A stretch of DNA of 64,000 nucleotides from Malacoraja senta (GCA_038087875.1 CM075995.1:4032001-4096000), one strand, 5' to 3'. Positions 21,678 through 64,000 are shown, numbered from the stretch's first letter. A program made the numbers and translations. The notes: generated by a model from the sequence alone, not told the origin.

Positions 21678-21741
21678 GGGAGAGGGAGAGGGAGAGGGAG
21701 AGGGAGAGGGAGAGGGAGAGGGAGAGGGAGAGGGAGAGGGA
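21678..21741 (+). repeat. (GGGAGA)n microsatellite between the two Tx1 copies
   Basis: About 10 perfect hexamer units. Confidence 0.95.
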
Positions 21742-22261: not shown

Positions 22262-24576
22262 ATGGCGATGGCTGAGGCGCGGCCGAAGAACCGGAGCTAC
22301 GCAGTGGCGGCATCAGAGGCGGATGCGAGACCATCAGAGTATGAGCCTTCTGTTGACTTGGATTGGGGCAGGTTTGGTATCTCGGTCCAAACTGGGCCCC
22401 AGATGTCAAGGGGAGTAATTACAAAGGCCGTGAATGGCCTTATTGGGGGGCGGGCTGTTGTCTCTTCCGAGCTTGAAAGAGGAAAGGTGGAGATGATATT
22501 AAAGACCCGGGAGGGTGTGGCCATGGCGTTGGAGAGGGGGATCTCAGTGGGGGGGGTCCACATACAGGTGGATCCGTGGGTATCTAGGGTGAGCGGTTCT
22601 CCTGCGGAGTTGCCCCACATTTATTCCGGATTCTACACTTATTCCACACCTGTCTAAGGTTGGGGAGGTGAGGTCTAAGTGCTTTAGGCTCAGGCACCCC
22701 GGGGGGGACCCGGAGGAAAGAGGGATCTTTAGTTTTAAGAGGAGGGTGTTTCTGAAGGTGGGTGAGGGCGAAGGCGCGGAGGGGAGCTTTGAGGTGGAGT
22801 GTCTGAGTCTCCGTAGAACCGTGTATTGGAGTTGAGGGAAGGCACGGTGTCATGCGTGTGGAGAATTTGGACATCTCCGTAAAGAGTGTCTTTTTCACGG
22901 GGTCGCTGCTAGAAGTTCTAGCGCAGCGGCCCAGGATTGCACTGCAGGCCCATCCGGGGTGGCTCATCATGCCTCGGTGGCGCTGGGTGGCACTGCTGAC
23001 CTGGCTAGGGCGGCTAGCTCTACCTCGGGGATCCGGGGCGGAAGTGATAGCCCATCTGGGTCTGCAAGTTCCGCCTTGGGGACCCGGGGCGGGGATGGCC
23101 TCCGCCCCCTGCGTCCTGAGCCTGTGGAGGTGGTGGTGGCTAATGGTGAGGTGCAGGGCGAGGGTGAAGAGGGGGAGGATGCAGAGGGGGAGGGGAATTG
23201 GGAGGTGCAGAAGAAGAGGAGGAGGACGAGACAGGTCAATCAAGAGAGTCTATCGCAATCTGAGACCACCCAAGGGGCGCCTGTCAGCTCTAGTGAGGTC
23301 CAGAGTGTGCTTGCCGTGGCCCAGCAAGGAGATGAGGTGGCTCAGACGTGGGTAGGGATGGTAAAGTGTGCGGGTGGTAAAGTGGCTGGGGGTAGTGTCG
23401 AGGAGGAAGACCCTTCCTTTATGGAGGTCACCGTACCGCCGCATGCTAGTGGGGTAAAAAGGAGGTTTAGGCCTGGCGAGGAAGAGGAAGTTAGGGGGAC
23501 GACTTTTTCCAGACCTTCCACCACTGATGTGGTTGGTGGTCAAGAAATGGTGTCTTCCGGGTTGGAGGTTGGGCCTCCATTTCAGGGATCTTCCGCGGGG
23601 ATTATAGGACCAGGTGATGGGGTTGATTCCTCTGGAGTTGTGTCCTCTGGGTGGGTGGATGTCCCTTCATCTCAGGGGCCCTCCGATGGAGTTATCTCAT
23701 CGGGTATTGAGGTTAGCTCCCCTGGGTGTGTGTCCTCTGGGTCGGAGGAGGTCCCCTCGTTTCAGAAGCCTCTTGAGGGTGATGGAACGCCAGAGGATGT
23801 GGTATGCGCCCCTGGTAGTGGGGTCCCTGAGATGGGGGATGAGCAGAGTCAGCCCGAGGGGGGTGGTTCGGGGGCTTTGGTGTTCCAGTCTGTGCTCCAC
23901 ATCAGAGCCAGTGGTGGTGATGGGGGGTGTGCTGCATCGCCGGATGAGTTGGTAGGGGAGAGGCTAAAGGAAAGTGGAGAGCCTCTGGGTGCTGCCAGTG
24001 GAGGTGATGCTATAGGTGCTGTGGAGGTCGGGGATAGTTCGGGTGGTGATCTCCCTTTAGTTTCCGGGGGATGCCAGTGTATCACAGGCCCTGGGGGTGC
24101 CTAGTGTTTTTGCTTCCCCAGGCCCAGGCGTAGAGGGTGATGGTACCGTGCAGGTCCCCAGCCAGTCAGGGGGCTGCCTGTTGCAGTCATGGGTTTCGGG
24201 ACCCTTACCCAGCATTGATACTGGGGGTGGTGTCTTGCTGGAGGAGTGGGAGAGTGCTCAGGAAAGTTTGTGTAGTGGGGGTGACGAGCTTTCGGAGAGC
24301 TCTGGTCTTTCAAATTCTGAAAGCGACCTTGAACATTGTGGTGTGGAGCCTGTTGTTGCAGGTGCGAGTGAGTTGGCTGAGTGCCCAGGCTCCAAGGCCG
24401 AGTCTCATGTACGTGATATACGGGAGGTTCGAGAATTCCTCAAAACAAACCGCTCTAGCAGAACAAGAATGGATGCTGCTAAAAGGCGGTGGGCTGATCT
24501 GCCAGTTTTGATTCAGACTCTCGAGGCTATTCTTGGCAACAGGGAGAGTGATCTTCCTGTCTTAGAGCAGAGCTAG
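22262..24576 (+). pseudogene. Tx1 ORF1 (gag-like), frameshifted
   Basis: N-terminus RSYAVAA...GISVGGVHIQVDP, CCHC knuckle near 22850, and a long low-complexity G/S/E linker. Confidence 0.8.
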
Positions 24577-24649
24577 TTTGGGGACTTTTGGGTGTTCCTC
24601 AGACAGAGAGTTGTTGTGTCAACGGGGAGTATGAGGGGTTTAATCTAGT

Positions 24650-27600: not shown

Positions 27601-28351
27601 CATCGGGCCAAGGCTCCGGGATATATCTCGGGCACCGGCTCTACACAACCTGAGCCGCCTTTCTGAGATGATCAGCATACCGTTTCGTGATACGAAGAGA
27701 CGCACACTGTATCGGATGTTCCTGCACATTCTGCACCTCCTTGCCTTTGTTTCCCGTCCTGACACACCTTGGAGGACGGTGTTACCACCTGAAGGCGAGG
27801 GAGGTCCCTGGTGGGGGTCCTTCTATAAGGGAGTTGTCCCCCTTTATATTGGGGACCTGGGGTGGAGACTGTTGCACGGAGCGGTGGTTTGTAATATACT
27901 TTTGAGTAGGTTCACGGGATCGTCCGCCGCGTGTATTTTCTGTGGCAAGGAAGAAACCGTGTTCCACGTATACATGGAGTGTGCGAGGCTACTGCCCCTG
28001 TACCAATATCTGAAGGGGTTGTTCCTCAAGTTCTGGTTGCATTTTAGTCCCACGATTCTAGTGTGTGGGCATAAGGCAGGGTGTGGGGAGAGCGAAGTGG
28101 GGGGGTGGGACCTCCCTGTTGGTTTGCTCCTGGGCCTGGTTAAGATGGCCATTCGTGGGTCCAGGCAGCGGGCGGTCGATGGTGAGGCTAGAGTTGGCTG
28201 CCTGCCCCTCTTCCGGGCGTACGTCCGTGCACGGGTGTCCCTGGAGCGGGAACATGCGGTGTCCACGGGGACTCTGGAGGCCTTCCGTGGGCGCTGGTCA
28301 CCACGTGGGGTTGAGAGTATAGTAAATAATGAATGTACTGTTGTACTATAA
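24650..28351 (+). pseudogene. Tx1 ORF2 (APE-RT-zinc finger), frameshifted
   Basis: ATLNLNG, FLQETH, NVYAP, GGDFNC, SRIDR, SDH; KSPGLDGLTVEF, KNWRPVSLL, LDQEKAFDRV, GVRQGCP, AYADDV; CIFCGKEETVFHVYMEC. Confidence 0.92.
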
Positions 28352-36315: not shown

Positions 36316-38658
36316 CAAAAACATTGTAATTAGATTTAATGGCATGTAATAATTGTGACACATTTCTCCATGGGGGTAACATCTGGCTTCCCAAGAAAAA
36401 GTATGGAAGCTAAAATTGTCACAGAGGCATTTTATGAGTTTGAGTTCCGTTCCTTTCCTTTCCTTCCTTGGGAGAGAATGCCTTTTAATTCTTAGTTCCA
36501 TCTAAACTATTTAATTCCAATTTATGTAAAAAATGCAATGTCTGAAATTAAGATGTTAATAAGTGACATTTTGCTTGTGTGGAAACTGCTGTAAATACCA
36601 CTTGATTACACTGCTCTTGAATTATTCAGCGTTTTTAATAACCCTCGCAGCTTATCATTCCTATAGCCTGGTATTTCCATCCTTTTTTAATTAGCTATCA
36701 CCGCCATATTGATACGTCTGACAGCTTTGTCATGATTATAATGCTAATATTTTAGCAAATTTTATTATTTCAGTTATGGGACCTGCAGATGTCGTTTGGT
36801 GATGTGGTTACTCTGGTCCAGAAAAAATCAACCCAGTCGAGCCGAGTTATGCATTGCTCAGACCGCCCATTCATTTCTACAGTCACTGCATTCTGTCATA
36901 CAAAGCACACCCTATTAATGATTTCCCAGCCACTGTCTGTTAACAAGCCAGGGCATTTTGCTAATGATCAAACTCACCAAGAAGGGCTTTATTGACACTG
37001 TCAGAACTACTTGCTGTCTCAGCGGTAATACCAAACAGCTGTACAGAATGCATAATCTCTGATGTGCATCTGCGTCTGCATATTAAACAGAACACACCAA
37101 ATTAAATGAAGGGATATAGGAGGCAGAGAAGCAACCTTTTCTGCTATTTACATCTTGGTTTTTTTTGCTGGATATTCACCCATGAGGAAGGGAGGGAGGG
37201 AGGGAGAGGGAGGGAGAGGGAAGTATTATGAATGTGAGCCTGATACAACACGCTGGCATACAGTTTGCAGTGTGTCCATGTTTGCTCTTGTTAACAGATC
37301 ATAAGGTTGTAATTGATAGTAGAATTAGGCCATTCGGCTCATCAAGTCGACTCTGCCATTCAATCATGCCTGATCTATCTCTCCCTCCTAACCCCATTCT
37401 CCTGCCTTCTCACCATAACCTGACTCTTGTACTAATCAAGAATCTACCAATCTCTGCTTTAAAAATATCCACTCACTTGGCCTCCACAGCCTTCTGCGGC
37501 AAAGAATTCCACAGATTCACCACCGTCTGACTAAAGAAATTGCTCCTCATCTCCTTCCTAAAAGAACGTCCTTTAATTCTGAGGCTATGACTTTTAATCC
37601 TAGACTCTCCCACTAGTGGAAACATCCTTGATCCTAGTGGCAGGAGTTGAGAGGGATAGATAGATCTGAAACGGCGGAGTAGGTTCGATGGCACACATGA
37701 CCTAATTCTGCTCCTATGACTAATGAACTTATAAAAACACAGATACTCAAGTGGTGGGTTTAAATTAATTGTATGTGAACAGTACAAGCTGAGTAGATCA
37801 CATCCTCAAAGAACTGGTATAATTAGAGAAGAATCTTCCAATGCAAATTGGATATCCCTACGCACACACATATTTTACATCTTCCCATTGTGTGCTTAAC
37901 AGTTAGTATGGGTGGCTGGTAATAATCTACTTAATTTCCACTTGTCACTTGCTTTCATTATCACCTTCACTTCTCCTCAGCATGTTTCGCCCAAGAGCAT
38001 GTATCTTAACACATTTTGTTGACAACTATAAACCTGTCAGGCAAGGAGGCCAATTATTATTGACAACTTCACACTGAGGCGATGTGCAAGGCAAGGTCTT
38101 TTGCACAGAGAGCGGTGAGTGCTGCCAGGAGTGTCTTGGAGAGCAGGAGACTAAGAACTGTATAAGATCTTGAGGGGAATAGATAGGGTAAATGCACAGA
38201 GTATTTTACCCAGATCAGGGGAATCAAGAATCAGAGGACATAGGTTCAAGGTGAAGGGGGGGGGGGGGGAGTGGGAATTTAATAGGGGATTCATTTAAAT
38301 GGAATTGGGGCAACTTTTTCACACGGAGCGTGGTGGGCATACAGAACAAGCTGCCAGAGCAGATAGTTGACGCAGGTACTATAACATGTAAAAGAGATTT
38401 GAAGAGGTAGATGGATAGGAAAGATTTAGTCTGAAGAAGGGTCTCGACCCAAAACATCACCCATTCCTTCTCTCCAGAGATGCTGCCTGTCCCGTTGAGT
38501 TACTCCAGCTTTTTGTGTCTATCAGGGTTATAACAAGGCTAGGTGGGACTTGTGTAGATGGGGAATCTTGGTCAGCATGGGAAAATTGGGGCTAAGGGCC
38601 TGTTTCCATGCTGTATGACTATAACTCTATGATCTGCAGGGAATGGAGAGATATGCAT

Positions 38659-38858
38659 NNNNNNNNNNNNNNNNNNNNNNNNNNNNNNNNNNNNNNNNNN
38701 NNNNNNNNNNNNNNNNNNNNNNNNNNNNNNNNNNNNNNNNNNNNNNNNNNNNNNNNNNNNNNNNNNNNNNNNNNNNNNNNNNNNNNNNNNNNNNNNNNNN
38801 NNNNNNNNNNNNNNNNNNNNNNNNNNNNNNNNNNNNNNNNNNNNNNNNNNNNNNNNNN
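38659..38858. other. Assembly gap (200 N)
   Basis: Run of N. Confidence 1.
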
Positions 38859-41800
38859 GACCATCCAAAATGAATCACTCTGATGTACTGGCCCCAGATC
38901 TAGAACACACAACTTCTGGCATATCCATTTTTGGAAGGAATGAGATTGTTATTTTGAAAAGTAGATGAGTTCCTAAATATTTTTACAAATATATTTCATT
39001 GCATTGTTTTGTTTTGTTTAGTTCAGAGATACAGCATGCTTGGCCCATCGAAGTGGGAGGAAACGAAGATCTCGGAGAAACCCATGCAGGTCACGGGGCG
39101 AATGTGCAAACACAGACAAGCCCCGTAGTCAGCATCGAACCCGGGTCTAAGGCAGTAGCTCTACCGCTACGCCACCGTGCTGCCCCCAAAACATTGTAAT
39201 TAATTTAATGGCATGTAATAATTGTGACACATTTCTCCATGGGGGTACATCTGGCTTCCCAAGAAAAAGTATGGAAGCTAAAATTGTCACAGAGGCATTT
39301 TATGAGTTTGAGTTCCGTTCCTTTCCTTTCCTTCCTTGGGAGAGAATGCCTTTTAATTCTTAGTTCCATCTAAACTATTTAATTCCAATTTATGTAAAAA
39401 AATGCAATGTCTGAAATTAAGATGTTAATAAGTGACATTTTGCTTGTGTGGAAACTGCTGTAAATACCACTTGATTACACTGCTCTTGAATTATTCAGCG
39501 TTTTTAATAACCCTCGCAGCTTATCATTCCTATAGCCTGGTATTTCCATCCTTTTTTAATTAGCTATCACCGCCATATTGATACGTCTGACAGCTTTGTC
39601 ATGATTATAATGCTAATATTTTAGCAAATTTTATTATTTCAGTTATGGGACCTGCAGATGTCGTTTGGTGATGTGGTTACTCTGGTCCAGAAAAAATCAA
39701 CCCAGTCGAGCCGAGTTATGCATTGCTCAGACCGCCCATTCATTTCTACAGTCACTGCATTCTGTCATACAAAGCACACCCTATTAATGATTTCCCAGCC
39801 ACTGTCTGTTAACAAGCCAGGGCATTTTGCTAATGATCAAACTCACCAAGAAGGGCTTTATTGACACTGTCAGAACTACTTGCTGTCTCAGCGGTAATAC
39901 CAAACAGCTGTACAGAATGCATAATCTCTGATGTGCATCTGCGTCTGCATATTAAACAGAACACACCAAATTAAATGAAGGGATATAGGAGGCAGAGAAG
40001 CAACCTTTTCTGCTATTTACATCTTGGTTTTTTTTGCTGGATATTCACCCATGAGGAAGGGAGGGAGGGAGGGAGAGGGAGGGAGAGGGAAGTATTATGA
40101 ATGTGAGCCTGATACAACACGCTGGCATACAGTTTGCAGTGTGTCCATGTTTGCTCTTGTTAACAGATCATAAGGTTGTAATTGATAGTAGAATTAGGCC
40201 ATTCGGCTCATCAAGTCGACTCTGCCATTCAATCATGCCTGATCTATCTCTCCCTCCTAACCCCATTCTCCTGCCTTCTCACCATAACCTGACTCTTGTA
40301 CTAAATCAAGAATCTACCAATCTCTGCTTTAAAAATATCCACTCACTTGGCCTCCACAGCCTTCTGCGGCAAAGAATTCCACAGATTCACCACCGTCTGA
40401 CTAAAGAAATTGCTCCTCATCTCCTTCCTAAAAGAACGTCCTTTAATTCTGAGGCTATGACTTTTAATCCTAGACTCTCCCACTAGTGGAAACATCCTTG
40501 ATCCTAGTGGCAGGAGTTGAGAGGGATAGATAGATCTGAAACGGCGGAGTAGGTTCGATGGCACACATGACCTAATTCTGCTCCTATGACTAATGAACTT
40601 ATAAAAACACAGATACTCAAGTGGTGGGTTTAAATTAATTGTATGTGAACAGTACAAGCTGAGTAGATCACATCCTCAAAGAACTGTATAATTAGAGAAG
40701 AATCTTCCAATGCAAATTGGATATCCCTACGCACACACATATTTTACATCTTCCCATTGTGTGGCTTAACAGTTAGTATGGGTGGCTGGTAATAATCTAC
40801 TTAATTTCCACTTGTCACTTGCTTTCATTATCACCTTCACTTCTCCTCAGCATGTTTCGCCCAAGAGCATGTATCTTAACACATTTTGTTGACAACTATA
40901 AACCTGTCAGGCAAGGAGGCCAATTATTATTGACAACTTCACACTGAGGCGATGTGCAAGGCAAGGTCTTTTGCACAGAGAGCGGTGAGTGCTGCCAGGA
41001 GTGTCTTGGAGAGCAGGAGACTAAGAACTGTATAAGATCTTGAGGGAATAGATAGGGTAAATGCACAGAGTATTTTACCCAGATCAGGGGAATCAAGAAT
41101 CAGAGGACATAGGTTCAAGGTGAAGGGGGGGGGGGGGGAGTGGGAATTTAATAGGGGATTCATTTAAATGGAATTGGGGCAACTTTTTCACACGGAGCGT
41201 GGTGGGCATACAGAACAAGCTGCCAGAGCAGATAGTTGACGCAGGTACTATAACATGTAAAAGAGATTTGAAGAGGTAGATGGATAGGAAAGATTTAGTC
41301 TGAAGAAGGGTCTCGACCAAAACATCACCCATTCCTTCTCTCCAGAGATGCTGCCTGTCCCGTTGAGTTACTCCAGCTTTTTGTGTCTATCAGGGTTATA
41401 ACAAGGCTAGGTGGGACTTGTGTAGATGGGGAATCTTGGTCAGCATGGGAAAATTGGGGCTAAGGGCCTGTTTCCATGCTGTATGACTATAACTCTATGA
41501 TCTGCAGGGAATGGAGAGATATGCATTATGTGTAAGCAGAAGAGATTATTTAAACATGGCATCATGGGCATTGAGGGCCGAAGGGTCTTATATTGTGTTG
41601 TATTGTTTTACGATCTATGTTAACTCTACAAAATAATCATGCTTATCTAGATTTCATTTGTTTTTATAAGACTAATTCTGACTGCAATGATAATTTACAA
41701 TGAGTTTATTTTTCATAGAATCTATCATAAGATGATCATTTACGATCTTGAAAAACATCGAATTAAATAATGTAAATATGTGATGCATTAGCACGATGAA

Positions 41801-49290: not shown

Positions 49291-49543
49291 TCTCCCGCGA
49301 GAAAATGAACGCGGTCGCGGGGAGAACGTACAAACTGTGCAAACAGCCCCCGTAGTCAGGATCGAACCTGGGTCTCCGACGCTGCAAGCACTGTAAGGCA
49401 GCAACTCTACCGCTGCGCCACCGTGACCGCCTTCATAAATGAAATGATCCATCTCAGGCAACACTTTGGTGAATCTGCTCTGCAGCCTCTCCAGTGCAAT
49501 GATATCTTTCCTAAGGTGAGGCAACCATAAAAATTGAGAAAGG

Positions 49544-50478
49544 TGTAGGGGTTTTGGTTCCCTTCACTTCGGGCCCAACTGCCCGATAAAGAGGTTCCCC
49601 TGGGTTCTAGACCTCGGAATTATGGTGGGATATGATAAAAAATTGACTTGACCAGAGCGTGCTGATGAGAGAAAACAGAAACCAAGACGGGCTCAAAGCA
49701 AGTCTAAAATTTACAGGCTTTATTAAACAATGAGAAATCGAATCTCACCAACACTACATAATACATGACTAAACTTATGCTTTAAACTAAGACTATGGAA
49801 AGAAAATTATCGGGCACGTCGTAAAACTTACTTTACACAATTTTACAAATACACCCCCTTTCCCCTTCTTCTCTCAACCTCTATCCTATTTTCGGGAACT
49901 TCACCAGGTCGTCTGGGGTACTTACAGCTAGATTGATGCAGGGTCAGGAGTCATCCAACAGAGCAGAAAAGAGAGCGAAACCTTCCTTGACTGTCCTTTT
50001 TTATACCTGAGTTTCTCCCTTGAAACCCCCCAGGTGGTCCTCTGGACAAAAGTGCCTTTCGATGATTCCCAGTTTCGATCTGGCATGAACAATAGGCTTC
50101 CGATGATAATGGGTTTGGTGATGTCACGATGCCTCAGCCTGATCGTTATCCCATCACCTGGATGGGCTCCGATTGTCCCGATGGATGCGTCATCCACGAT
50201 GATGATTGCGTTGCTGCTGGGCTGTTTACCCCCGTCTGCTGAGGCTCGGTTCCTTCCTTTGTCTTTCCAAGATAATCTCGTTATCTCCGTCCCGGCCTTT
50301 CCTGTTCACACCATTCGCATAGTCATGTAATACCCAGGCCCACAGACAGGTTTTAAACTGGTTCTTCCTTTGTGGATTGTTTTTTTTTCCTTTTGCAGCC
50401 AGCATGTCCGTTTTAAAATGTCCAGGTCCTTATCCCCGAGTTCTTCCATAATTTGAGGATTTGCCACAATAGCTTACA
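49544..50478 (-). repeat. 3' LTR of provirus
   Basis: Same length as 59337-60271 and roughly 95% identical by eye; minus-strand TATAAAA at 49999-50005 and AATAAA at 49719-49724. Confidence 0.95.
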
Positions 50479-50794
50479 TGCCCCTACGATACGTCCAGGC
50501 TTGCACGGACCGTATCGATTGACAAACTTAGTGTGCAACTCCTCCAGTCTCAAGAGTTGTAAACTCCCCTGTCGAGATTGTGAAATTATGTACCCCAAAA
50601 GACCCCTTAATTGCTAAACTAGACCCTCGAAGCACATTAACTTACACTATCACCTTTTACTTTAAATAAATCCCACAAACCATACAGTACCATCACGACC
50701 ATTCCCTGAAAATGCAGGGATCACAACATACGTACGAAAACCATTGCAATAGAGTACAGACATTTTACAGTGCTGAGGTGTCGTTACAGCTGCG

Positions 50795-52080
50795 TCAGGC
50801 GGCTCGATTTACCAGCTGTTGTAATTTGGTCATCCTCCTCCGCCTTTTAAATTTGCAATTAATGCATAGCAAATACACTACAATTATCATCTGGCAGATG
50901 ATCAGAACATGGGACACGATGCGGGCCCATGCTGGAACTATGATCCAGGACTCCAGGACTCCAGGTCCCACCAACTTGGAGACTTGATTTCTTCGATCTC
51001 CCTGGCGATATCCAGTGTCTTTTGTTCCAGGGAGAAGAAGTGTTTGTGCGACAACTCGACCGCCGCCAGCAACTCTTTTAATTTTTCCTTCACTGGGGGA
51101 ATATCATACCCGAAATGGGCCACATAGTTAGATAAGTCCGTTACATTTTCTCGTACCGAGAGGTGAACCGAAGAAGGTTCCGGGATGGGTAATTTTCGCT
51201 GCTGTGCCACATGGACTTCTGCCCTGGGTTTAAAACAGAAGCTGCTGTGTGGTATCGGGCACCACAGCTGTGATCCGTGCTGATACCGCTGGGCACTTGT
51301 GGTGACACAGTATGTCCCACTGCTTATATACGCCACCTGTGGAGGGACATGGTCTGCCGCCATCGCCTCCATGGTACAGTTTATAGGCTGTGCCCCAACA
51401 GTCCTGAACCCACACTGAGGCCTAGCCTCGGCGCCCATGTGCTCCCCGGCTCCGACAACCCAAAAGGTCAATGCCTGTCACAGCTTGCTCCCTCACTATG
51501 ACATAAGGCGGGACCTTCCTGTAGCGAATATGCACCCCCCCCCCCACGAACAACTCCCACGTTCTCCACTCGGTACAGAGGAGCTGGTAGTGCCGAGGTT
51601 CCCATCACCGGGATTCTTACGACCACTCCCATTATAGTGTGATTGGACTTTCCACAATCCACCGGTACTGGGTAGGCCTCGGAGGCCACACGAAGCTGAC
51701 AAGGACTCAAAGTGCTGTTATAAGGGTGTAGCGCTGCTAGGTGCTGGTTGCTTATCCAGGAGGGGACCCGACCTTGCCTCAGGTCTTCCAGGTTGCTCCT
51801 CCCCTCCCCCAACAACCACGCACCATACAGCCCACACACCTCATTCTGTGCAGCCTGATCGGACGCATTCCGGTCCTCTTTAATCAAAGCGTTTATCGTT
51901 TTTGCATGTGTCTCCAATTGTGCTATGATTTCATTTAGATGTAGAGTCATTGCCACCTCGTCGTGCAGCCCCGATCCTACCACCGCATTTTCCTCCCCCA
52001 GAACCTCGTTGCCATCATCCATACGGCGGGGCTACCCATCTGGGAAACAAAGCAAAACACCTCCTTGCCTCCACATCGCT
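50795..52080 (-). pseudogene. env: env: class I fusion glycoprotein-like, disrupted; 5' boundary uncertain
   Basis: Lies between IN and the 3' LTR. Contains a heptad segment (LHLNEIIAQLETHAKTINALIK), a Cys-rich beta region, N-glycosylation sequons (NAS, NST, NHT, NCT, NVT), a second heptad (LEQKTLDIAREIEEI) and W-rich SWWDLESW. Removing an 8-bp duplication (50945-50960) restores TM IVSHVLIICQMIIVVYLLCI, a basic stop-transfer KFKRRRR and a stop at 50795. Confidence 0.85.
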
Positions 52081-52354
52081 GTCCGCCTCCCTGCACTCCA
52101 TCACACCCATGGAAGAGTGGCCATCCGGCCAACGGTAGCGGCTACCGTCCTAATAATGGCATTCGGGGTTTTGTTTTGTCTGTTGTGGTCTACTTTTCCA
52201 CAGCCCATCCCTTCGAGGCAGCCGACGTTCCCGTACTGTCCGTCCCTGTACTCCCCTGTATACAAAACCCTATATCTATTACCAAACGCTAACTACATCT
52301 ACTCACACACAAACCAATGCTATATACAACGCCACCCGTCTCCGGGTGGCCAAC

Positions 52355-55300
52355 TCATAACTGGTCCCCGTCACGCTGGGGCCACCCCTCTGGCGGGCCC
52401 ACCCGTGCAGGCCAGAACTCCTCCTGTCGAGGGGTCTGACTGCCCCTCACCTCCCTTTGCACTACGGGGTTTCGAGATACCCCTACGTTCCCTGCGGAGA
52501 CTGGGCTCCCTCCAACCGCACTCCGTAGTGCCCTGTTTCGGTCATTCTCCTTCCCGGCCCTCCTGTGGCCGGCCCTAGCCCTAGGTTTGATTAGGGATGG
52601 GGACCACCTTACTGGGGGTTTAGTGACCCTGTTACTCCTGTGTCTGACCGGGGGCTCCCACACCAGAGGTGATACCTCCATCTCCTCTGCTTCTGCCAGT
52701 TCTGCCTCTCTTAGGCAGTCTACGGTACCTGCCTGCGGAGGGCTGGAATCAGCATCCTTCCCCGCTGCTTCCAGTCCTCACCCTGGGACACAGCAGGCTA
52801 CTTCAGGCTGACTACCTGTGGGCTCGCCTGGCTCCCCTACGGTTTCCACATCAACCCGGGTCTGTTCTTGATCCTGTTCCCTGACATGTACCACTTTCTT
52901 ACTTTTCCCTGCCATTGTGGGGTCGAACAATTTACACTGGTTGATGTGGAACTATTTGACTCTATGGGGAAGCTGAATGGCATACACCATGGGACTGGCC
53001 TTGTTCACTATGTTGTATGGGCCAGCATACAAGGGTTCGAACACCCCTACCCTAGCATATCTCCTGACCATTACCTGGTCCCCCACTGCCCACTCGCAAT
53101 GCCTCCGAGGCTCCAGTAGTAGCTTGTTTCTTTGGTGCTGGGCCCCCATGTTTCTGGCTGCCTGCCAGTGAACCTGCCTAAGTTGTTCAAATAGCCCCTT
53201 GGCGAACTTGTCCCGGTTCACTTCCCTGAGCTGTCCCTCTGTTAAGGCTGGGACCATAACGTGCATGGGCGTTCTCATGACCCGGCCCGTCATAAGCTCA
53301 TGGGGAGAGTACCCCGTACTCCTGGACTGGCTGGCCCGAATCCCCATAAGGACCAGGGGTAAAACCTCCACCCACAGGTTGGGTGAGTCCCCTGTTTCCT
53401 TCCTTATCCTTTCCTTTATTGTCCGGTTCAACCGCTCTACTGGACCTGAGGACTGGGGGTGGTAGACCACATGCCACTTGGCCTTGATGCCCAGTATTCT
53501 AAGGGTGGACTGCATGACCTGTCCCGTGAAATGGCTCCCCTGATCTGACTCCACGAACTGTGGGAGTCCCCACCGGGTGAACACCTCCCTAACCAGGATT
53601 TTTGCCATACCCTATGTACAGTTATTCCTAGATCCTTCTGTTCAACTGCATTCCTCAATTCTCTACCATTTACCATGTACGTCCTATTTTGATTTGTTGT
53701 GCCGAGATGTAGTACCTCACATTTATCAGCATTAAACTCCATCTGCCATCTTTCAGCCCACTCTTCCAAATGGCCTGAATCTCTCTGTAGACTTTGAAAA
53801 TCTACTTCATTATCCACCACACCACCTATCTTAGTATCATCTGCATACTTACTAATCCAATTTACCACACCATCATCCAGATCATTGATGTACATGACAA
53901 ACAACAGTGGACCCAACACAGACCCCTGAGGCACCCCACTAGTCACCGGCCTCCAACCTGACAAACAGCCATCCACCATTACTCTCTGGCATCTCCCATT
54001 CAGCCACTGTTGAATCCATCTTGCTACTCCACCATTAATACCCAACAATTTAATCTTCTTAACCAACCTTCCATGAGGAACCTTGTCAAAGGCCTTACTG
54101 AAGTCCATATAGACAACATCCACTGCTTTACCCTCATCAATTTCCCTAGTAACCTCTTCGAAAAATTCTAGAAGATTAGTCAAACATGACCTTCCAGGCA
54201 CAAATCCATGTTGACTGTTCCTAATCAGACCCTGCTTATCCAGATGCTTATATATATTATCTCTAAGTATCCTTTCCATTAATTTGCCCACAACTGACGT
54301 CAAACTAACAGGTCTATAATTGCTAGGTTTACTCTTAGAACCCTTTTTAAACAACAGAACAACATGCGCAGTACGCCAATCCTCCGGCACTATTCCCGTT
54401 TCTAATGACATTTGAAATATTTCTGTCATAGCCCCTGCTATTTCTACACTAACTTTCCTCAATGCCCTCGGGAATATCCTGTCAGGACCTGGAGACTTAT
54501 CCGTTTTCATATTTTTCAAAAGTGTCCGCACCTCTTCTTTGAATCTCATAGTTTCCATTGCTACTCTGCTTGTTTCCCTTACCTCACATAATTCCATATC
54601 CTTCTCCTTGGTGAATACCGAAGTAAAGAAATTGTTCAATATCTCCCCCATCTCTTTTGGCTCTGCAGATAGCTGTCCACTCTGACTCTCTAATGGACCA
54701 ATTTTATTCCTTGTTATCCTTTTGCTATTAATATAGCTGTAGAAACCCTTTGGATTTACTTTCACCTTACTTGCCAAAGCAACCTCATATCTTCTTTTAG
54801 CTTTTCTAATTTCTTTCTTAATATTCTTTTTACATTCTTTATACTCCTCAAGCACCTCATTTACTCCATGCTGCCTATAATTATTGTAGATCTCTCTCTT
54901 TTTCCGAACCAAGTGTCCAATTTCCCGTGAAAACCATGGCTCTTTCCAATTTTTACTATTTCCTTTCAAACGAATAGGGACATAAAGATTCTGTACTTAA
55001 AATGTTACCCTTAAATGTCCTCCATTTCTCTTCTACATCCTTCCCATAAAACAACATGTCCCAATTCACTCCTTTTAAATCCTTTCGCATCTCCTCAAAG
55101 TTAACCTTTCTCCAATCAAAAATCTCAACTCTAGGTCCAGTTCTGACCCTCTCCACCTTCACTTTATGGATATATCTATCCCCGCCCTTCCCTACGGCTG
55201 CTACAATCCTCTCTAATAGGGGTTTAGTGGTCAGGGGCTTCCCGTCCGATCAGGTGTACCCTCGGCGGGACCAGATGGCCAGATATTCCGAGCAGGAATT

Positions 55301-57449
55301 GAATGTGAACATGCTGTCCGAACATATGGTGTATGGGGGGGGGAAACGCTCGGGATGGGTGATCACGTACATTACCGCCGCCAGCTCGGCCTGCTGGGTG
55401 CTTAACGTATGTGGGAGTTTAAGGGCTAGGGCTATCTCCGCCTCGGGGTCCCAGATCCCACAGCCCGTGAGCCTTATGCCCTCGGTCACGATACTGGACC
55501 CGTCCACGTATATTTCCCTACCCGTGGGATGTAACCCTGCTCTGCCCAAAGTCCACCTCCCATACCCCTTCCACCGAGCAATGGTGTGGCTCCCCTGGGT
55601 ACACCAAATTGGCTGCGAGCTTGGGCTCGCATAGCCTCTCAACCCGTAAGGCTATTTGGGAAAGGAGAAGAGTCCAGCGAGTGATCCTCGCACTGCTAAC
55701 GGTCCCATCCTTAATCCGACCGTCCAGCAGCATCTGGGTTGGGGTATGGTGGGTCAGGAGGGTGATGGGGGACACTCTTATGAAGACCTGTACCCTCTTC
55801 ACTGCCCAGTATGTGGCTAGCAGGTGCCGCTCACAGTTTGAATAGGACCTTTCTACCTCTGTGAGGACTCTGGAGGAATACACCACTGGCCTTAACTTGC
55901 CGTGCCGTTCCTGGAGGAGCACTTCGCCCAGGCCCTCTTTGCCTGCGGCTACCTCCAGGAAAAATTCCTCCCTGTAGTCGATGGCTCCCAGAGCTGGGGC
56001 CTTTTGCAGGTCCCGCTTCAAATGGACGAAGGCCGACTCGCACTGCTCATCCCACTCCCACTCTACCCCTTTGCGTAGCAGCCGGTGCTGCGGTCACGGC
56101 ATAGTCCTCTATAAAGTCTCGGCAGTAGCCCATGACTCCCAGAAATGACCTTACCCCCCCCCCCCCACGTCCGCTGGGATTGGGAGTTCCTGCACTGCCT
56201 GCCTTCTTGCTGTATCGATACCCCTTTCTCCGGCCCTAAGGGTCAGTCCCAAGAACTTTACCTCTTGTAACCCTATCTGTGCCTTCTTGGGATTTACTTT
56301 TAAACCGCTCTTACAGAGCAGCTCCAGCAGTTCGTTTACTAGGGGCCCATGTTCCTCACTGGTGTCCGTGAATAGCAAAATATCATCCACATACTGGACG
56401 ATCTTGTGGGGCTCACTGAATTCCTTTAAACATTCCGCCATACATTGGTGGAAAATACTGGGGCTATTGTGGAACCCTTGGGGAAGACAGTTCCACGTGT
56501 ACTGCTGCCCCTTGAATGTGAAAGCAAATTTGTACTGGTCTTCCTTCCTGACCGGGATAGACCAGAAACCGTTCGCGATGTCTAGCACCGTAAATACAGA
56601 TGCAGACGCCGGAATTTCCTCTAATAGGTCTGCTACGGCTGCCACAGTTGGTGCGCAAGCCGGAATGTTCTTATTCAGGACCCTATAATCTACCGTGGCC
56701 CTCCATGAATTGTCTGGCTTCCGTATGGGCCAGAGCGGTGAGTTCACATGGGTGGTTATGGGCCTCAAAACGCCTTGCTTAACCAGTGAACTCAGGGCGA
56801 CTTCTAAGTCAGCCTCCGCTTCTCGGGGAAACTATACTGTTTCTGCAGTCGGGACATGGGATCCCCGTCTATCCTGACCTCTGTTCCTGTGACCCTTCCA
56901 CAGTCATGCTTGTGAGTAGCGAATGCGGCCAAATTTTGCTTAACATGGCCTCGATACTCTGTCGGGGTCTGCCTCACTAGGGCCTCTACATCGTACCACT
57001 CTCTGGGCTTCACAACACACAGAGCCCCTCTCTCTGGTGCCCTCTCGATGACCATTACCTCCTTCTCTCTCTCAGCCCCTTCTCCTGCTATGCCCCACAA
57101 ACAGTGGTTCCTCAGGTCCACCAGGACCTGGTGGGCCACTATAAAGTCGGCGCCTAGTATCCCCTTTCCCTCCTACTCCCAACTCATCAGGACACACTTC
57201 CACTGTGCCTGGAGTGCTCCTAATCGAATGGACAAGGGAACAGAGAAAAACCCCGTCTTCTCATTTCCTGTAAAACCGACAAGACTATAGGGCGCCCCAC
57301 TAGATAGAGGGGATGTACGGGGATGGTACTGGAAGCACCTGTGTCCAGCAGGTAACTCCCGACCACATCCTGGACCTCCATCTTGACCCAGGGTCTCCCA
57401 CATGGGCATACTGTAACGGGCATAGGAATGTGGGCTGTTTTGCTGGCAG
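52355..57449 (-). pseudogene. pol: pol polyprotein: protease, RT, degenerate RNase H, second RNase H, integrase; frameshifted and interrupted by CR1
   Basis: LLDTGAS (PR); SPLWPIRKPD, VLDIANGFWSIP, LPQGFHNSP and YVDD (RT, 56151-56768); RPVVYSSRVLTEVERSYS..ERHLLA (RH1, 55518-56021); YVDGS..AELAA..SDS (RH2, about 55160-55515); SDQGSHF..HPQSSGPVERLNRTIK..GPY (IN, 52952-53608). The frame continues through stops to the RSNRVTKPPVRW tail at 52355-52681. Confidence 0.92.
53612..55160 (-). mobile_element. Internal CR1 LINE ORF2 fragment nested in proviral pol
   Basis: ORF 53437-54969 has KSPGPDRIFPR, NYRPVSLTS, DFSKAFDKVPH, GVPQGSVLGP and YADDTK; it is nearly identical to the CR1 at 7.3-8.0 kb and has no 3' tail. 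Confidence 0.93.
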
Positions 57450-59334
57450 TCATAAAGGTGCCGGGGGTGCGGATACGGGCGCGCGCTGGCCTGTTGCCAT
57501 GGCTACCTGTCCGGACCCTCCAGCCTTGGACTGCAAATAGGCCAATAGATCTTTTACATCTATTGTTCCCGGCACGGCCGCTCCCTCGTCCGGGGCTGGG
57601 TCGGCTGTTACCGGGGTCCTATCCTCCACTGCTCTACTTGGGTTTCTGCACTCCCTCTTGTAGTGCCCTGGTTTCCCACACCCGTAGTACGCCGGCCTCA
57701 TCTCGGAAGAGGTCCGGTTGCCTTCCTGTTTCCACTGCCTCCTTTTGGGGGGTGCCGGTGCTATATTGTGCACCTTGCCCTTAAAGGGCTTCTCCTCACT
57801 TCTCTCCCCGTTGCGATAAGCAAGGGTGAGCTTCCTTATTACCTCCGCCTCGTTAAGGCTTGGGTCCGCTGGGTCGAACCAGTGCTCGGCCTTTGCCCTA
57901 ACTCGCGGGATGCAATTCGCTACCAAAGTCTTCAGCCAGTGGGCTGTTCTCTCATCTAAATTCCGCCTAGCTAAAGGCGTTCCACACGCTCCCTCATACA
58001 CTGCCCACAGTCTGTCTGCGAACATGTCCGGGGACTCAGCTACCTGCTGCTTCGTATCCCCCACCCTGGCGAAAGGACTACCCTGATTCAACCCCATGGT
58101 CTCCAGAACCGCTGTCTGTGCCGCTACCCATGTTTCAGGTCTTCCCCCTTCCCTGGAGGTCACCGCCTTGCATAGGTAGGAATCCAGGGTCATCAGTAGT
58201 AGCTTTACCCGTTCTACCTCATCGCAATCATTTATGTCGGCTGCCTGCTGCACCTCCATAAAATGCAATGACGGGTCTCCCGCCCTGGTTAACCTGGGAA
58301 CGTAAGCCACCATCCCCCTCAGCACGTGTGCCCCATGGGGAATGATGATATCACTCTCTATGGGCCCCCTATCTGCCTGCCCTACCGGGGGACCATATTT
58401 CCTTTGCCGTACTGGGCACATCTGCCCTTCCCGGATGTTGCCCCTTTACCCCCTGCTCTCCCACCATGATCGGTAACCCCACCACCTCGTGGTGTGCTAC
58501 ACATGGCGCAGACGCCGCTAACTGAGGGTGCTCTTCCGCCCCTCCTTGGGTCTGTCCCTTCCCGGACAACCCGAACCCCACCTGCCGACCCGGACCTATT
58601 CCCGGCGCCTCAGGAGGCGGTCTATTCCTCTTTGCCCCTGGGGAATCACATGCTGAGGGAAGCCCTCTGCCCCTGGGGGACCCCCCTGGTCCTACCAGGT
58701 GAACCCGTCCCCTAGTCTTGGACAGAGTCTCCTCCAGCTGCGCTACCCTTGCCTGGCAAGGCCCATGATCACAATCCCCTTGCTCGCTATGGGCCACCCT
58801 GTATGCTGCTTGGATATCTTGGAACTTTCACTCCAGCTCCCTGTATCTCTGTGTACTCTGAGCCAGGCGTTCCTGGGTATTCCGCTCCCTCTCCTTTGCC
58901 TCTACTGCCTGACATTGGAGGAATTCCTGGGCATTTCTGTGGGACTCCCTAGCCTGCAAGATACACTGCCTGGCTACACTGAGTTCCTCACATAGCCCTT
59001 CCCCTTCTCTAGCGCTTTCCTCAGCACTGGCCCTAGCTATTCTCAGTTGCTCTTCTAGACTCTCTACCTGTCTCTCCATTTTGGCTACCTGCTGTGATAG
59101 GCACGCTAGCCGAACTGCCTTTTCCTTCCCTATATTATAACCTTTACTTTCAGTCCATTCTGCTGCAGCTGCTGCGGGCTGCTGTGCTGTCAAAAGTGCT
59201 ACCACCCATTGTTTGGTGAGATTGATCTTTTTAAACAGATAAGAGGAGATTCTCTCCTCCATCTTGCTACGTTCTCTCACCCCCTCTGGCAAGTCACATA
59301 TCCCAAACCACCGAGGTCCTGCCATGGTCGCCAT
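57450..59334 (-). pseudogene. gag: gag: N-terminal coiled coil, capsid-like region and CCHC zinc knuckle; broken into several ORFs
   Basis: ORF 58828-59334 is heptad- and Glu/Arg-rich; ORF 58369-58797 follows; ORF 57450-58421 contains YYGCGKPGHYKREC (CX2CX4HX4C with the first C mutated). Confidence 0.85.
59316..59333 (-). promoter_or_regulatory. Primer binding site, tRNA-Arg(TCG)-like
   Basis: TGGCGACCATGGCAGGAC lies 3 nt inside the 5' LTR boundary. It matches 16/18 of the complement of the vertebrate tRNA-Arg 3' end GTCCTGCCGCGGTCGCCA (recalled, not searched), and both mismatches fit CpG decay. Confidence 0.75.
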
Positions 59335-59336
59335 TC

Positions 59337-60271
59337 TGTAGGGGTTTTGGTTCCCTTCACTTCAGGCCCAACTGCCTGAAAAAGGGGTTCCCCTGGGTTC
59401 TAGACCTCAGAATTATGGTGGGATATGATAAAAGGTTGACTTGACCAGAGCGTGCTGATGAGAGAAAACAGAAACCAAGACGGACTCAAAGCAAGTCTAA
59501 AATTTACAGGCTTTATTAAACAATGAGAAATCGAATCTCACCAACACAACATAATACGTGACTAAACTTATGCTTTAAACTAAGACTATGGAAAGAAAAT
59601 TATCAGGCACGTCGTAAAACTTACTTTACACAATTTTACAAATACACCCACTTTCCCCTTCTTCTCTCAACCTCTATCCTATTTTTGGGAACTTCACCAG
59701 GTCGTCTGGGGTACTTACAGCTAGATCGATGCAGGGTCAGGAGTCATCCAACAGAGCAGAAAAGAGAGCGAAACCTTGCTTGACTGCCCTTTTTTATACC
59801 TGAGTTTCTCCCTTGAAACCTCCCAGGTGGTCCTCTGGACAAAAGGGTCTTTCGATGATTCCCAGTTTCGATCTGGCATGAACAATAGGCTTCCGATGAT
59901 AATGGGTTTGATGATGTCACGATGCCTCAGCCTGATCGTTATCCCATCACCTGGATGGGCTCCCATTGTTCCAATGGATGGGTCATCCACGATGGTGATT
60001 GTCTTTGCTGCTGGGCTGTTTACCCCCGTCTGCTGAGGCTCGGTTCCTTCCTTTGTCTTTCCAAGATAATCTCGTTATCTCCGTCCCGGCCTTTCCTGTT
60101 CACACCATTCGCATAGTCCTGTAATGCCCAGGCCCACAGACAGGTTTTAAACTGGTTCTTCCTTTGTGGATGGGGGGTTTTCCTTTTGCAGCCAGCATGT
60201 TCGTTTTAAAATGTCCAGGTCCTTATCCCCGTGTTCTTCCATGATTTGAGGATTTGCCACAATAACTTACA
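59337..60271 (-). repeat. 5' LTR of provirus
   Basis: Direct repeat of 49544-50478; minus-strand TATAAAA at 59792-59798, GTAAGT at 59713-59718 and AATAAA at 59512-59517; adjacent to the PBS. Confidence 0.95.
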
Positions 60272-60699
60272 AAGGAGAGGAGAAGGTTGATTTAGTCAGA
60301 GGGTGGTGACTCTGTGGAATATAATGCCACAGACGGCTGTGGACGACGTCAGTTCAGTTCCGTTCAGTTTTGCTTATTGCCACATGTACCAAGGTGTTTG
60401 TTGCGTGCTATCCAGTCAGCAGAAAGACAATACATGATTACAATCGTGCCATTTATAGTGTATAGATACAAGATAAGGGAATAACGTTTAGTGCAAGGTA
60501 ATAGCAACAAAGTCCAATCAAGAATAGTCCAAGGGTCATCAAAGAGGTAGGTTGTAGTTCAGCACTGCTCTCGGGTTGTGGTCGGATGATTCAGTTGTCT
60601 GATAACTGTCCCTGAATCTGGTGGTGTGCGTTTTCACCTTTTGCCTGATGGGAGAGGGGAGAAAAGGGAGTGGCCAGGGTGCGACTCATCCTTGATTAT

Positions 60700-60972: not shown

Positions 60973-63914
60973 TTAAACAAAATCGCCATAGCGGTCAGGC
61001 GGTTTGACAAGACGTCCCGCCCGGGTTCGCGTCTCACCATCCACCCTTCCTGCAGGAGGAAGAGGCACCGGCGGGGACAGACGAACCTGAAAGGGGGAAA
61101 CGGGAGGAGACGGAGGAGACCGCGGCACCGAACCCGGAGGTGATGCGAGATCAGGACCGGGAAGAGCGCGGGCAGGCGAGCGAGGACTAGTCAGAGCGGG
61201 GTGGAACGGAAGGGGCTGAGGAGGAGCAGAACGTTGCATGTCAGGAAGGACGGGCAGAGCAACGCCCTGACGCGAAACAGGCAGTGGGGGAGCAAAGGGA
61301 TCCGCGGCAGGAGGACGCGGCTCGTTGACGAGCCGAAGGTGCTGGCGGGACCGTCGGTAAATGGCTCCAGCGTGGTCGACGAGATAGGACCTGGGCGACC
61401 CCGCAGAGCCGACGACGGTAGCGAGCTTGGAGTGACCGGGAGCGGTCTGCATACGGACAACTTGACCGGGGAAGAGGCGCGGCAGCGGGTGGCAGGACCT
61501 GTCATGGGAACGCTTTTGGACGTCGTGCCTGAAGGCAATGCGTTTCTGAACTGCCGCAGGTGGGAGGATGGAGGGTATGAGGGAGCGCTGGGCCACAGGG
61601 AGCGGGAGTCTGGTAGCGCGAGACATGAGCCGCTGAGCAGGTGAACCCATGGCAGAGTCGCGGGAAATGTTCCGAAGGTTGAGGAGGGCCAGATGGAAGT
61701 CGGAGTTAATGCCACCACACTGTTCCAACAGGTGCTTCGCGCTGCGGACTGCGCGCTCGGCCAAACCGTTGCTTTGCGGGTACTCCGGGCTGCTGGTGAA
61801 ATGGCGGAAGTTCCATCTGGAAGCGAACGCTTTAAACTCGGAGCTCGTGAACTGGCTGCCATTGTCCGATTGCAGGCTTGCCGGGGGGCCAAAAGTGCCA
61901 AAATGAGGGTACAACCTATCGATGATGGCCGAAGAGGTTATGGAATGCAGCCGGTCGACCACAAACCAGCTGGAGTAGGAGTCAACGAGAACCAGGAAGT
62001 GTTTGCCCCGCCACTCGAAAATGTCGGCGGCAAGCGCCATCCAGGGCAGTTCGGGCGCGGGCTGCTGCAGAAGCGGCTGACGCTGCTGGTGGGGGGCGAG
62101 GCTGTTGCAGGTGGAACACGAGGAGACCCTCTCCCGGATGTATTTGGCCATATCCGGCCAATAGAACTGGCTCCTGGCGAGAGACACGGTGGCTTCGGCC
62201 CCAGGATGACCGCGGTGAGCGACTTGAAAATAGTGGTCGTGCAGCGCCGCGGGCACGACCACCTTGTGACCCTTCACCACCACGCCGTCATGCAGTACGA
62301 GCTCGTCACGGACCAGGAAGTAGGGCACGGCACCAACCGGCAGTGCCGAACGACGGTCAGGCCAGCCCTGCCGGATGACGGCAGACAGCTGTTGCAGGGC
62401 AGGGTCATTGGTAGTGTGTTCAACCAGGGACTTCATCTGCTGTGAGGGGACGATGTTCAATTGTAGCACCAATAGCTCAGACATTTCATATTGGTGGCGA
62501 GCGGTGGACGTTAGCGGGGCGCGAGACAACGTGTCGGCCACGAACATGTCCTTGCCCTTACGATAAACCACCGTGAACGTGAAGCGCTGGAGCTGCAGCA
62601 TCATGCGCTGCAGGCGTGATGAGGCCACATGGATCGACTTGTTGAGGATGGTGACAAGTGGCTGATGGTCAGTCTCAACGGTGAAAGTGTTGCCCACGAT
62701 GTAGTCCCGGAATTTGGAGCAGGCAAACACCACGGCCAGTAGCTCCTTCTCGATCTGCGCGTAGTGCTGTTCGGTGGCGGTCATGGTGCGGGACGCGAAG
62801 GAGACAGGCAGCTGCAGGCCGTCATGGACCTGGAGACAGGCGGCACCGAGTCCGAACTGAGAGGCGTCGCAGGTGAGGACAATGGGACGCTGCAGGTCAA
62901 AGAACTTGAGCGTGGGGGTGCTGATCAGCTTAGACTTAAGAATGTCGAATGCCTTCTGATGGTTGGGTAACCAAAGCCAGGACGTGTCCTTTTTTTTACC
63001 AGATCCCTCAGGGAAGCGCTGAGCTCGCTGAGGTCGGGGATGAACTTCCCCAGGTAGTTTACCAAGCCTAGGAAGCGTTGCAGGCCTGCCACATTGGTAG
63101 GAGGGGGCATCCCTGAAATGGCAGCCGTTTTCTGCGGGTCTGGCTTTAACCCCTCAGCGGTGAATACATGTCCAACATAGGTGACCTCCGGGACGCGGAA
63201 TCGGCACTTCTTGGGGTTCAGTTTCAAGTTGATTTGCCGGGCCCGGTCCAGGACCTGGCGGAGGTTGACATCGTGTTCGGCAACGTCCTTACCGTAAACG
63301 AGGATGTCGTCAACAATTATGGCGCAAGGTAGACCTAAAAACAACTGCTCCATTGTCCACTGAAATACCTCGCTGGCAGAGTTGATTCCGAATGGCATTC
63401 GGAGGAACCGAAACCTTCCATAGGGGGTGGCGAAAGTTGTCAAAATGGACGACCGCTCGTCCAGTGGTATCTGCCAGAAGGAGCTTTTGGCATCGAGGAC
63501 AGAAAAAACCGTTGCTGGACCAACCTGTGCAGCGACTTCTTCCACCGTTCTCATAGGGTAGTGACGGCGTCTAATGGCCAGGTTGAGGTCTTTGGGGTTG
63601 ATGCAGATGCGTATCTCGCTCATGTCCTTTTTAGCAGCAACAACCATGGAAGAGACCCAGCTGGTGGGCTCGACGACCGCCTTTAGGATGCCCATTTGTA
63701 CCATACTGTGTAGTGTCGCCTCCACTCTGTCCCTCATGGCGAAGGAGACACGGTGAGGAGCATGGACCACAGGAACGATCTTACGGTCCACTACAATCTT
63801 GTAGCTGCAGGGTAGTTTGCCTAGCTTATCATCAAAGCGGTCGGGATAATCGGCCAGCGGGTCCATAAGAGTCTGCACCTGGTGGATGTCACGGTGGAAG
63901 TACACCAGTCCCAT
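60973..63914 (-). pseudogene. pol: Gypsy pol (RT-RNase H-integrase) with a frameshift at the T-run near 62990
   Basis: VLDAKSSFWQIPL, RMPFGINSASEVFQ, IVDDILVYG; YAQIEKELLA..TDHQPL; HRGHPG..CSTC; SDNGSQF; PQSNGLAERAVR. Confidence 0.92.
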
Positions 63915-64000
63915 TTCCTGGCATGCCCGGATCCCCAGCAGGGGAATGCATTTTTGATCGAGGAGATAGAAGGTGAGGGGCCGAGAGGTCTCTAGTATCT

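Follow-up and report, generated by a model that had tools for sequence, protein, structure and literature searches.

The 64,000-nucleotide stretch of the Malacoraja senta assembly analyzed here (GCA_038087875.1 CM075995.1:4032001-4096000; the window) carries on its minus strand, at positions 49544..60271, an endogenous retrovirus (ERV) bounded by two 935-bp long terminal repeats (LTRs), both of the form TG...CA (3' LTR, 49544..50478; 5' LTR, 59337..60271). The pair is flanked by an unstranded target-site duplication, AAGG (49540..49543 and 60272..60275), which is 4 bp long and does not extend to 5 bp. Three bases past the 5' LTR lies a primer-binding site (PBS, 59316..59333) that pairs at 18 of 18 positions with the 3'-terminal 15 nt of a tRNA-Arg(CCG) gene of the host, followed by CCA. 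This gene, which contains an 18-nt intron (L023:1499-1592, minus strand), is the sole match in the genome to the PBS pattern; a tRNA-Gly identity was rejected for it, as allowing introns yields tRNA-Arg(CCG). At the opposite end, a weak, short purine-rich stretch, recognized by eye, occupies the position of the polypurine tract (50479..50487).

Between the LTRs, all on the minus strand, gag comes first (57453..59315), spread over three frames and comprising an N-terminal part rich in E, Q, R, and A that by eye appears coiled-coil-like, a capsid-like region, and one CCHC knuckle (Pfam E 0.005). Lokiretroviruses may carry an optional smc-like gene; in the window no separate open reading frame (ORF) lies between LTR and gag, and the coiled coil belongs to Gag. 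The gag frame stays open from the end of the 5' LTR through the PBS (59316-59361, minus strand), leaving an unusually short untranslated leader or none at all. A TGA (57450..57452) separates gag from pol, which in sister copies continues in the same frame; the TGA was present in 22 of 22 locus reads, representing 19 distinct copies, and protease was in frame in 20 of the 22. Gag-Pol would be made by read-through of this stop. Downstream follow protease and the leader of reverse transcriptase (RT), frameshifted in this copy (56832..57449); the RT core with a YVDD box and an LPQGF-type motif B (56151..56831; RVT_1 E 3e-37); the tether, a degenerate Ty3-type RNase H (55656..56054; PF17919/PF17917, E 5e-24 and 6e-21); a second, retroviral RNase H with a truncated end (55157..55543; PF00075, E 7.8e-9); a non-LTR long interspersed nuclear element (LINE) fragment with its own RT (53613..55155); an integrase remnant holding the second half of the core, a GPY motif, and a long C-terminal tail (52355..53612); and, between integrase and 3' LTR, a frameshifted env remnant (50765..52039) in which the start codon and a few codons are followed by a gap of about 1.07 kb, heptad repeat 1 (HR1), beta domains, HR2, and a transmembrane (TM) segment. 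These features confirm a true provirus with the canonical order LTR-PBS-gag-pro-RT-tether-RNase H-integrase-env-LTR, and bear out the structural description given in the initial annotation: paired LTRs, a 4-bp duplication, a PBS, a coiled-coil gag, a YVDD RT, two tandem RNase H domains, an integrase with GPY, and an env at the retroviral position.

The window copy cannot replicate, because the LINE fragment replaces part of pol, about 1.07 kb of env is missing, and gag, protease, pol, and env are all frameshifted; none of these defects was noted in the initial annotation. The LINE fragment (1.54 kb, presumably of the CR1/L2 type) takes the place of about 0.66 kb of pol, spanning the end of RNase H and the start of integrase, and is missing from all three sister copies aligned over that spot. 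What is left of the integrase lacks the zinc finger and the first catalytic residue, and its rve match covers positions 53-102 of the profile only. The env deletion, near 52007, has removed the surface arm, the furin site, and the fusion peptide, and its junction is identical in all 12 fetched copies that possess the window's env region (the window counted). A stop shared ahead of a 425-aa env frame was considered as a family-wide trait and rejected, as it marks only this env-deleted sub-lineage.

Copies of the family are abundant in the genome, and the numbers given here are lower bounds: a pol probe returned 175 candidates, of which 40 were scored, and 38 of these (the window among them) span nearly the whole probe at 94-100% identity. 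An env-junction probe returned 155 matches, and among the 150 listed at least 70 cover the probe almost fully at 86-91% identity, with open frames of up to 798 aa, and at least 37 start only at residue 155-157 as does the window (36 if one frameshifted full copy is excluded). The family would have entered the germ line by infection. The sub-lineage of the window copy lost 1.07 kb of env and nevertheless reached about 36 copies, a spread that would have relied on retrotransposition within the cell or on Env provided in trans; the LINE insertion and frameshifts afterwards killed the window copy. The genome also contains a second, more distant family of the same kind, with about 60% Env identity (G000:C4152, G000:C1).

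The two LTRs differ by 37 substitutions over 934 aligned sites (Kimura two-parameter distance 0.0408), corresponding to about 9 million years at a rate of 2.2e-9 (PMC7947760) or about 93 million years at 2.2e-10 (PMC4422223); because these published rates differ, the age of the provirus is uncertain by a factor of ten. The host, taken in the initial annotation for a skate- or ray-type cartilaginous fish, is identified by RAG1 as a skate: RAG1 from this assembly shares 97% identity with a skate cluster, 89-90% with a stingray and an electric ray, 87-88% with sharks, and no more than 81% with bony vertebrates.

The initial annotation had taken the element for a member or relative of the lokiretroviruses (Loki), the sister lineage of canonical retroviruses. 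We compared its RT with three Loki-type contigs, recognized by a motif from the published alignment, and with snakehead retrovirus (SnRV), foamy, gamma, walleye, beta, and delta viruses, labeled in part by matches to rows of PMC7947760 data set S2; the SnRV reference is locus L066/L089, whose RT matches the SnRV row of that data set. Three of the loci (L036-L038) are near-complete lokiretrovirus proviruses within a metagenome collection, presumably carried-along host DNA. The best named reference for the window RT was SnRV (43.9% identity, 194 bits), with Loki at 33.6-35.1% (140-145 bits) and foamy viruses at 32-37%, and its nearest named relatives were frog and coelacanth "NYNRIN-like" Pols, at 46-53% where these are named among the top matches; viral contigs scanned at the protein level for the window RT gave no match. 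Motif B is of the PFG type in the published Loki RT rows examined, whereas the window has LPQGF, as does SnRV, and the Loki RT signature as a whole (PFG-type motif B, LSRWPM/MSGWPVP) is absent from the window RT. No Loki motif was reported among 98 RT homologues, for part of which the pattern displayed motif B.

Phylogenetic placement agreed with the motifs. An RT-only IQ-TREE analysis (33 rows by 234 columns, 44 of 77 rows having been left out) recovered a canonical retroviral clade including the window at 99.1/100 and a Loki clade without the family at 99.4/100, and grouped the window with the frog, coelacanth, and P0012 rows at 94.2/95. With the tether added (46 rows by 399 columns), the canonical clade including the family received 98.2/100 and Loki stood separate at 100/100. 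An approximately unbiased (AU) test on 30 rows, 16 of the 46 having been dropped, rejected the grouping of the family with Loki (p=0.002) and that of the broader clade with Loki (p=0.006), and did not reject that of the broader clade with SnRV (p=0.18). By its RT motifs, two maximum-likelihood trees, and the AU test, all of which place the RT on the canonical side, the element is not a lokiretrovirus; it is, judged by the same sequence comparisons, a member of the canonical Retroviridae, probably of the loosely defined SnRV-like or Huo group. Membership in the Spumaretrovirinae was rejected, as the RT lies outside the foamy clade in trees that left out the fish foamy-like ERVs (FLERVs), as was an Odin retrotransposon, a sister group of Loki that lacks env, since env is present and the RT falls outside the Loki side in trees without an Odin sequence.

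The GPY motif and the Ty3-like tether match might also suggest a Ty3/Gypsy retrotransposon that captured an env in the manner of errantiviruses, in which F-type env genes occur (PMC13524379). However, Ty3/Gypsy elements have a single RNase H, the trees separate the RT, together with Retroviridae and Loki, from the Gypsy rows at 99.4/100 and 100/100, and its best PDB matches are to foamy virus (151 bits) and murine leukemia virus (120 bits), above Ty3 (96 bits). On these sequence trees a Ty3/Gypsy origin is refuted, and we give it virtually no weight.

Loki is the best named match of the integrase (43.5%, 209-215 bits, compared with 125-130 bits for gammaretroviruses and 129 bits for SnRV), and the top Pol matches bear NYNRIN-like names. 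The RNase H groups with Loki and foamy viruses at 0.9 in FastTree. All retroviruses, as well as Odin, have the dual arrangement of tether and RNase H. A true lokiretrovirus in a cartilaginous fish could appeal to these likenesses, to the same gag-stop-pol layout, to an F-type Env (described below), and to the rank of Loki as best named reference for Env, integrase, and RT plus tether similarity. Against it, the RT motifs differ, three trees and the AU test exclude the RT from the Loki clade, the tRNA-Arg PBS differs from the PBS of two fetched Loki copies, and the Env gives no match to PF00523. A Loki RT query of the skate genome, moreover, found only the present family, at no more than 39% identity (141 of 15,688 candidates scored, a sample that does not prove true Loki absent from this genome), and the Loki motif pattern gave 0 matches. 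The lokiretrovirus assignment is already largely refuted, and we regard it as very improbable.

The same searches bear on host range. Loki was found in none of six chondrichthyan genomes (Wang and Han 2021, PMC7947760, supplement Fig. S1), a gap that the provirus, on the initial reading, could fill; because among the 141 candidates scored the Loki RT query brought up nothing but this family, at no more than 39% identity, and the RT of the element is not that of Loki, the gap stays open. Nor does the pol lineage seem to be new, as had been proposed alternatively. CmiERV lineage I of the elephant shark was reported as SnRV-like (Han 2015, PMC4422223), and an 11-mer and a 17-mer of its RT, as translated by eye, recur in P0012, which belongs to the clade of the window RT; because of these diagnostic peptides, and by way of this proxy, the pol clade is probably not new for cartilaginous fish. 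Every major vertebrate lineage is reported to harbor infections by clade Huo (Xu et al. 2018, PMC6001957), and clade III accounts for most RTs of chondrichthyan ERVs (PMC11089739); a search of the PMC9040795 supplement for six chondrichthyan names gave no match.

The env of the window copy is truncated, and the Env fold was analyzed on a natural 785-aa frame from a sister copy. In sister copies Env is a single ORF, and the 785-aa protein begins with a hydrophobic stretch and an additional arm some 230 aa long, carries an RQRR furin site at 328, and continues with long heptad helices and a single TM segment near 736; neither an immunosuppressive domain (ISD) nor a CX6CC motif occurs in it. Homologues were found in five shark genera (Pristiophorus, Chiloscyllium, Mustelus, Heterodontus, and Scyliorhinus), in the skate Rhinoraja, and in the frogs Pelodytes and Xenopus. 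One of them, P0123, matches at 48% an env start that is joined to the Pol of a frog element from the same clade, and this match links the Env family with that Pol clade. By eye, the N-terminal arm shows an Ig-V-like pattern (L034 env frame, about 100-200; P0123, 25-96); P0123 itself has a weak V-set match (E 0.045), and UniRef names another homologue, P0110, "Ig-like domain-containing". Pieces of this Env also occur in the shark gene models P0106, P0107, and P0126 (Niban-like, cadherin-related, and fbxo15), where they represent ERV sequence that was exonised or else models fused during annotation.

Pfam and PDB sequence searches with Env gave no match, and a search of the ESM Atlas returned one chordate cluster at 0.83, which is a lead only. 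An AlphaFold2 model from 32 sequences reached a predicted local distance difference test (pLDDT) score of 60.6, with the core mostly at 70-94 and the N-terminal arm below 50. Paramyxovirus and pneumovirus F proteins occupy the top PDB matches of this model throughout in Foldseek (best E 2.3e-9). VIA aligned it to Newcastle disease virus F with Z 11.8 (root-mean-square deviation 18.4, 337 aligned) and to foamy virus Env with Z 8.5 (5.3, 276 aligned), unrelated rows reaching at most 5.9, and its BFVD matches include the Envs of walleye epidermal hyperplasia virus 1, walleye dermal sarcoma virus, and feline foamy virus. The sister-copy Env is predicted from this model to have the paramyxovirus/pneumovirus F fold, in keeping with the initially proposed relationship to the fusion proteins of Mononegavirales. 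It would act as a class Ib fusogen in which the N-terminal arm binds the receptor and the furin-primed F core fuses membranes.

At the sequence level, a profile of the Env family searched against 524 reference frames gave Loki Env as the clear best match (59-60 bits), followed by foamy Env (at most 16 bits), SnRV Env (4.4 bits), and gamma Env (below 1 bit), and hhalign probabilities for the family were 98.3 to Loki Env and 83.5 to SnRV Env. A pairwise BLASTP comparison of skate and SnRV Env was not significant (E 1.3). An SnRV Env model (pLDDT 53.5) matches F proteins at E 6e-5, a result that is partly circular because its alignment was built from this Env family and one Loki Env. The Envs of walleye epsilonretroviruses (BFVD Q9WHI8, A4GTG3) and of SnRV (L089) also resemble F-type fusogens, which suggests that F-type Env is widespread in fish retroviruses. 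The initial idea of a relative of Loki stands to the extent that Loki is the closest named reference for Env and integrase, and falls with respect to RT. An F-type Env was the less surprising because foamy virus Env is already known to be F-like (PMC11468914). As foamy Env is F-type and all retroviruses have a dual RNase H, neither feature is diagnostic of Loki, and a lokiretrovirus cannot be recognized by the two in combination.

We consider it likely that the provirus derives from a canonical retrovirus of early-branching position (class III, SnRV-like, or clade Huo) that spread in skates, and that it is a defective copy in the germ line. Several results weigh against this interpretation. 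SnRV joins the clade only in FastTree (0.92) and in neither IQ-TREE tree, and bit scores for RT plus tether are slightly higher for Loki (253-264) than for SnRV (240). The integrase tree, in which CGIN1 was not included, gives no support around the family (0.0-0.48), and the trees, obtained by short searches under LG+G4, contained three Loki rows but neither Odin nor fish FLERVs. As to Env, the skate protein alone matches Loki Env at E 0.001-0.005, the best of three shuffles reaching 0.009; the strong link to Loki comes by way of the frog members (E 3e-12 to 5e-7); and PF00523 is matched by 0 of 32 family members at E 0.1, compared with E 1.2e-5 for a Loki Env control.

A second interpretation is a separate deep lineage that forms the first branch of canonical retroviruses and merits a name of its own instead of "SnRV-like". 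In both IQ-TREE trees the clade lies near the canonical base without SnRV; it retains a Loki-like integrase, a little-degraded tether, and a compact F-type Env; and by eye it is without an SnRV-type leader exon ahead of gag. However, the basal order received only 58-64 UFBoot, the grouping with SnRV was not rejected by the AU test, and the skate family has an Arg-type PBS, as we take SnRV to have. In addition, CmiERV lineage I was placed with SnRV by Han 2015 (PMC4422223). A distinct lineage is a possibility that we entertain tentatively.

Exchange of env offers a third. In a recombinant, a canonical class III RT would have been joined to an env, and perhaps an integrase, taken from a lokiretrovirus co-infecting fish or amphibians. 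Exchange is evident within the clade: CmiERV scaffold 2, of the same pol clade by proxy, encodes by eye a gamma-type Env with ISD and CX6CC, and because this elephant-shark relative has a gamma-type and the skate family an F-type Env, Env types have been exchanged inside the clade. A class III Xenopus ERV with a class I env has likewise been published (PMC8278194), and the skate Env is far nearer to that of Loki than to those of SnRV or foamy viruses. On the other hand, divergence within the Env family runs deep among sharks, skates, and frogs (distant members share 17-35% identity), the N-terminal arm and the cysteine pattern are peculiar to this family, and because SnRV, foamy, and walleye-virus Envs also look F-like, an old shared Env fold is favored. 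We judge a recombinant origin somewhat unlikely.

For the early-branching canonical retrovirus that we prefer, the F-type Env and putative NYNRIN/CGIN1-like integrase shared with Loki would most simply reflect retention from a common ancestor, with some relatives having swapped in a gamma-type Env. A broader proposal, to which we lend less than even credence, is that the shark, skate, frog, and coelacanth clade represents the earliest canonical branch and has kept the ancestral F-type Env, similar in sequence to that of Loki, the NYNRIN-like integrase, and an intact-looking tether, and that the ancestor of Loki and retroviruses had an F-type Env. If this is true, then, together with the Envs of foamy viruses, SnRV, and walleye viruses, it would mean that the common ancestor of Loki and all retroviruses carried a paramyxovirus-F-type Env and that gamma-type Env is a repeated later replacement, once inside this clade. 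Such a history would contradict the report of no significant sequence similarity between Loki and retroviral Env (PMC7947760), as well as the preferred model of independent env origins (PMC9040795). Wang and Han set out four scenarios for how the retroviral envelope arose, and favor one in which Loki and canonical retroviruses acquired it independently. With a lineage on the canonical side that has many young copies across sharks, skates, and frogs and an Env measurably related to that of Loki, these scenarios become testable by comparing Env and RT trees. This abundant family would escape ERV screens that require a known Env homologue, as in Han 2015 (PMC4422223). An F-type, Loki-related Env on an SnRV-like pol was not found in the literature covered, which excluded subscription journals, Repbase, and Dfam, and the family may be catalogued in either of these databases.

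Other elements occupy the surroundings of the provirus. About 0.7 kb from it, on the minus strand at 60973-63998, lies an ordinary Gypsy-type pol with RT, a single RNase H, a zinc-finger integrase, and long open frames. At about 19900-28300, on the plus strand, tandem or nested copies of a non-LTR element (zinc-knuckle ORF1, endonuclease, RT; presumably Tx1/L1-like) lie 6.7 kb apart and are 95-98% alike. A 2.87-kb direct duplication at about 36500-41500, 100% identical in the 300-nt blocks shown, is either very recent or an assembly artefact. Elsewhere, the skate genome (G000) contains a very young LTR-element family with dozens of identically scoring copies (130.5 bits), 1316-aa frames, and 30% identity to Loki RT.

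Among named systems, CmiERV lineage I resembles the skate family in its cartilaginous-fish host, its coiled-coil Gag, its similar size and LTR divergence (0.033 for CmiERV), and its pol clade, the last by way of the proxy P0012 (94.2/95), as CmiERV itself is not in the tree. CmiERV1, however, has a gamma-type Env with ISD and CX6CC, in contrast to the F-type Env without either motif in the skate family, and a PBS, presumably for tRNA-Ser, that differs from the tRNA-Arg PBS seen here. Foamy viruses share an F-like class Ib Env core and provide the best PDB sequence match for RT, but they form a separate RT clade, and the skate element, in which no bel/tas region was seen, differs from them by a Gag of the CCHC type and by its read-through pol. 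Loki and the skate family have in common an F-type Env with the same motif order, a putatively NYNRIN/CGIN1-like integrase, a well-preserved tether, and the gag-stop-pol layout, but differ in RT clade and motifs, in the PBS (presumably tRNA-Met in the two fetched Loki copies), and in the PF00523 match. The skate Env has an extra N-terminal arm of about 230 aa relative to that of Loki, and the protease region is short in the skate family, whereas the fetched Loki pol frames run for about 640 aa ahead of RT. SnRV shares the LPQGF motif, a coiled-coil Gag, and the in-frame gag-stop-pol arrangement, and its Env aligns weakly to the skate family (hhalign 83.5); it differs in not being sister to the family in the IQ-TREE trees, in a more distant integrase (35.7%), in a much larger Env (1134-aa frame), and in possessing a leader exon and accessory ORFs. 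Its PBS, the sequence of which we inspected, we take to be of the Arg type. Hart et al. in 1996 reportedly described SnRV as having a tRNA-Arg PBS and a coiled-coil Gag, and both of these features are present in the skate element.

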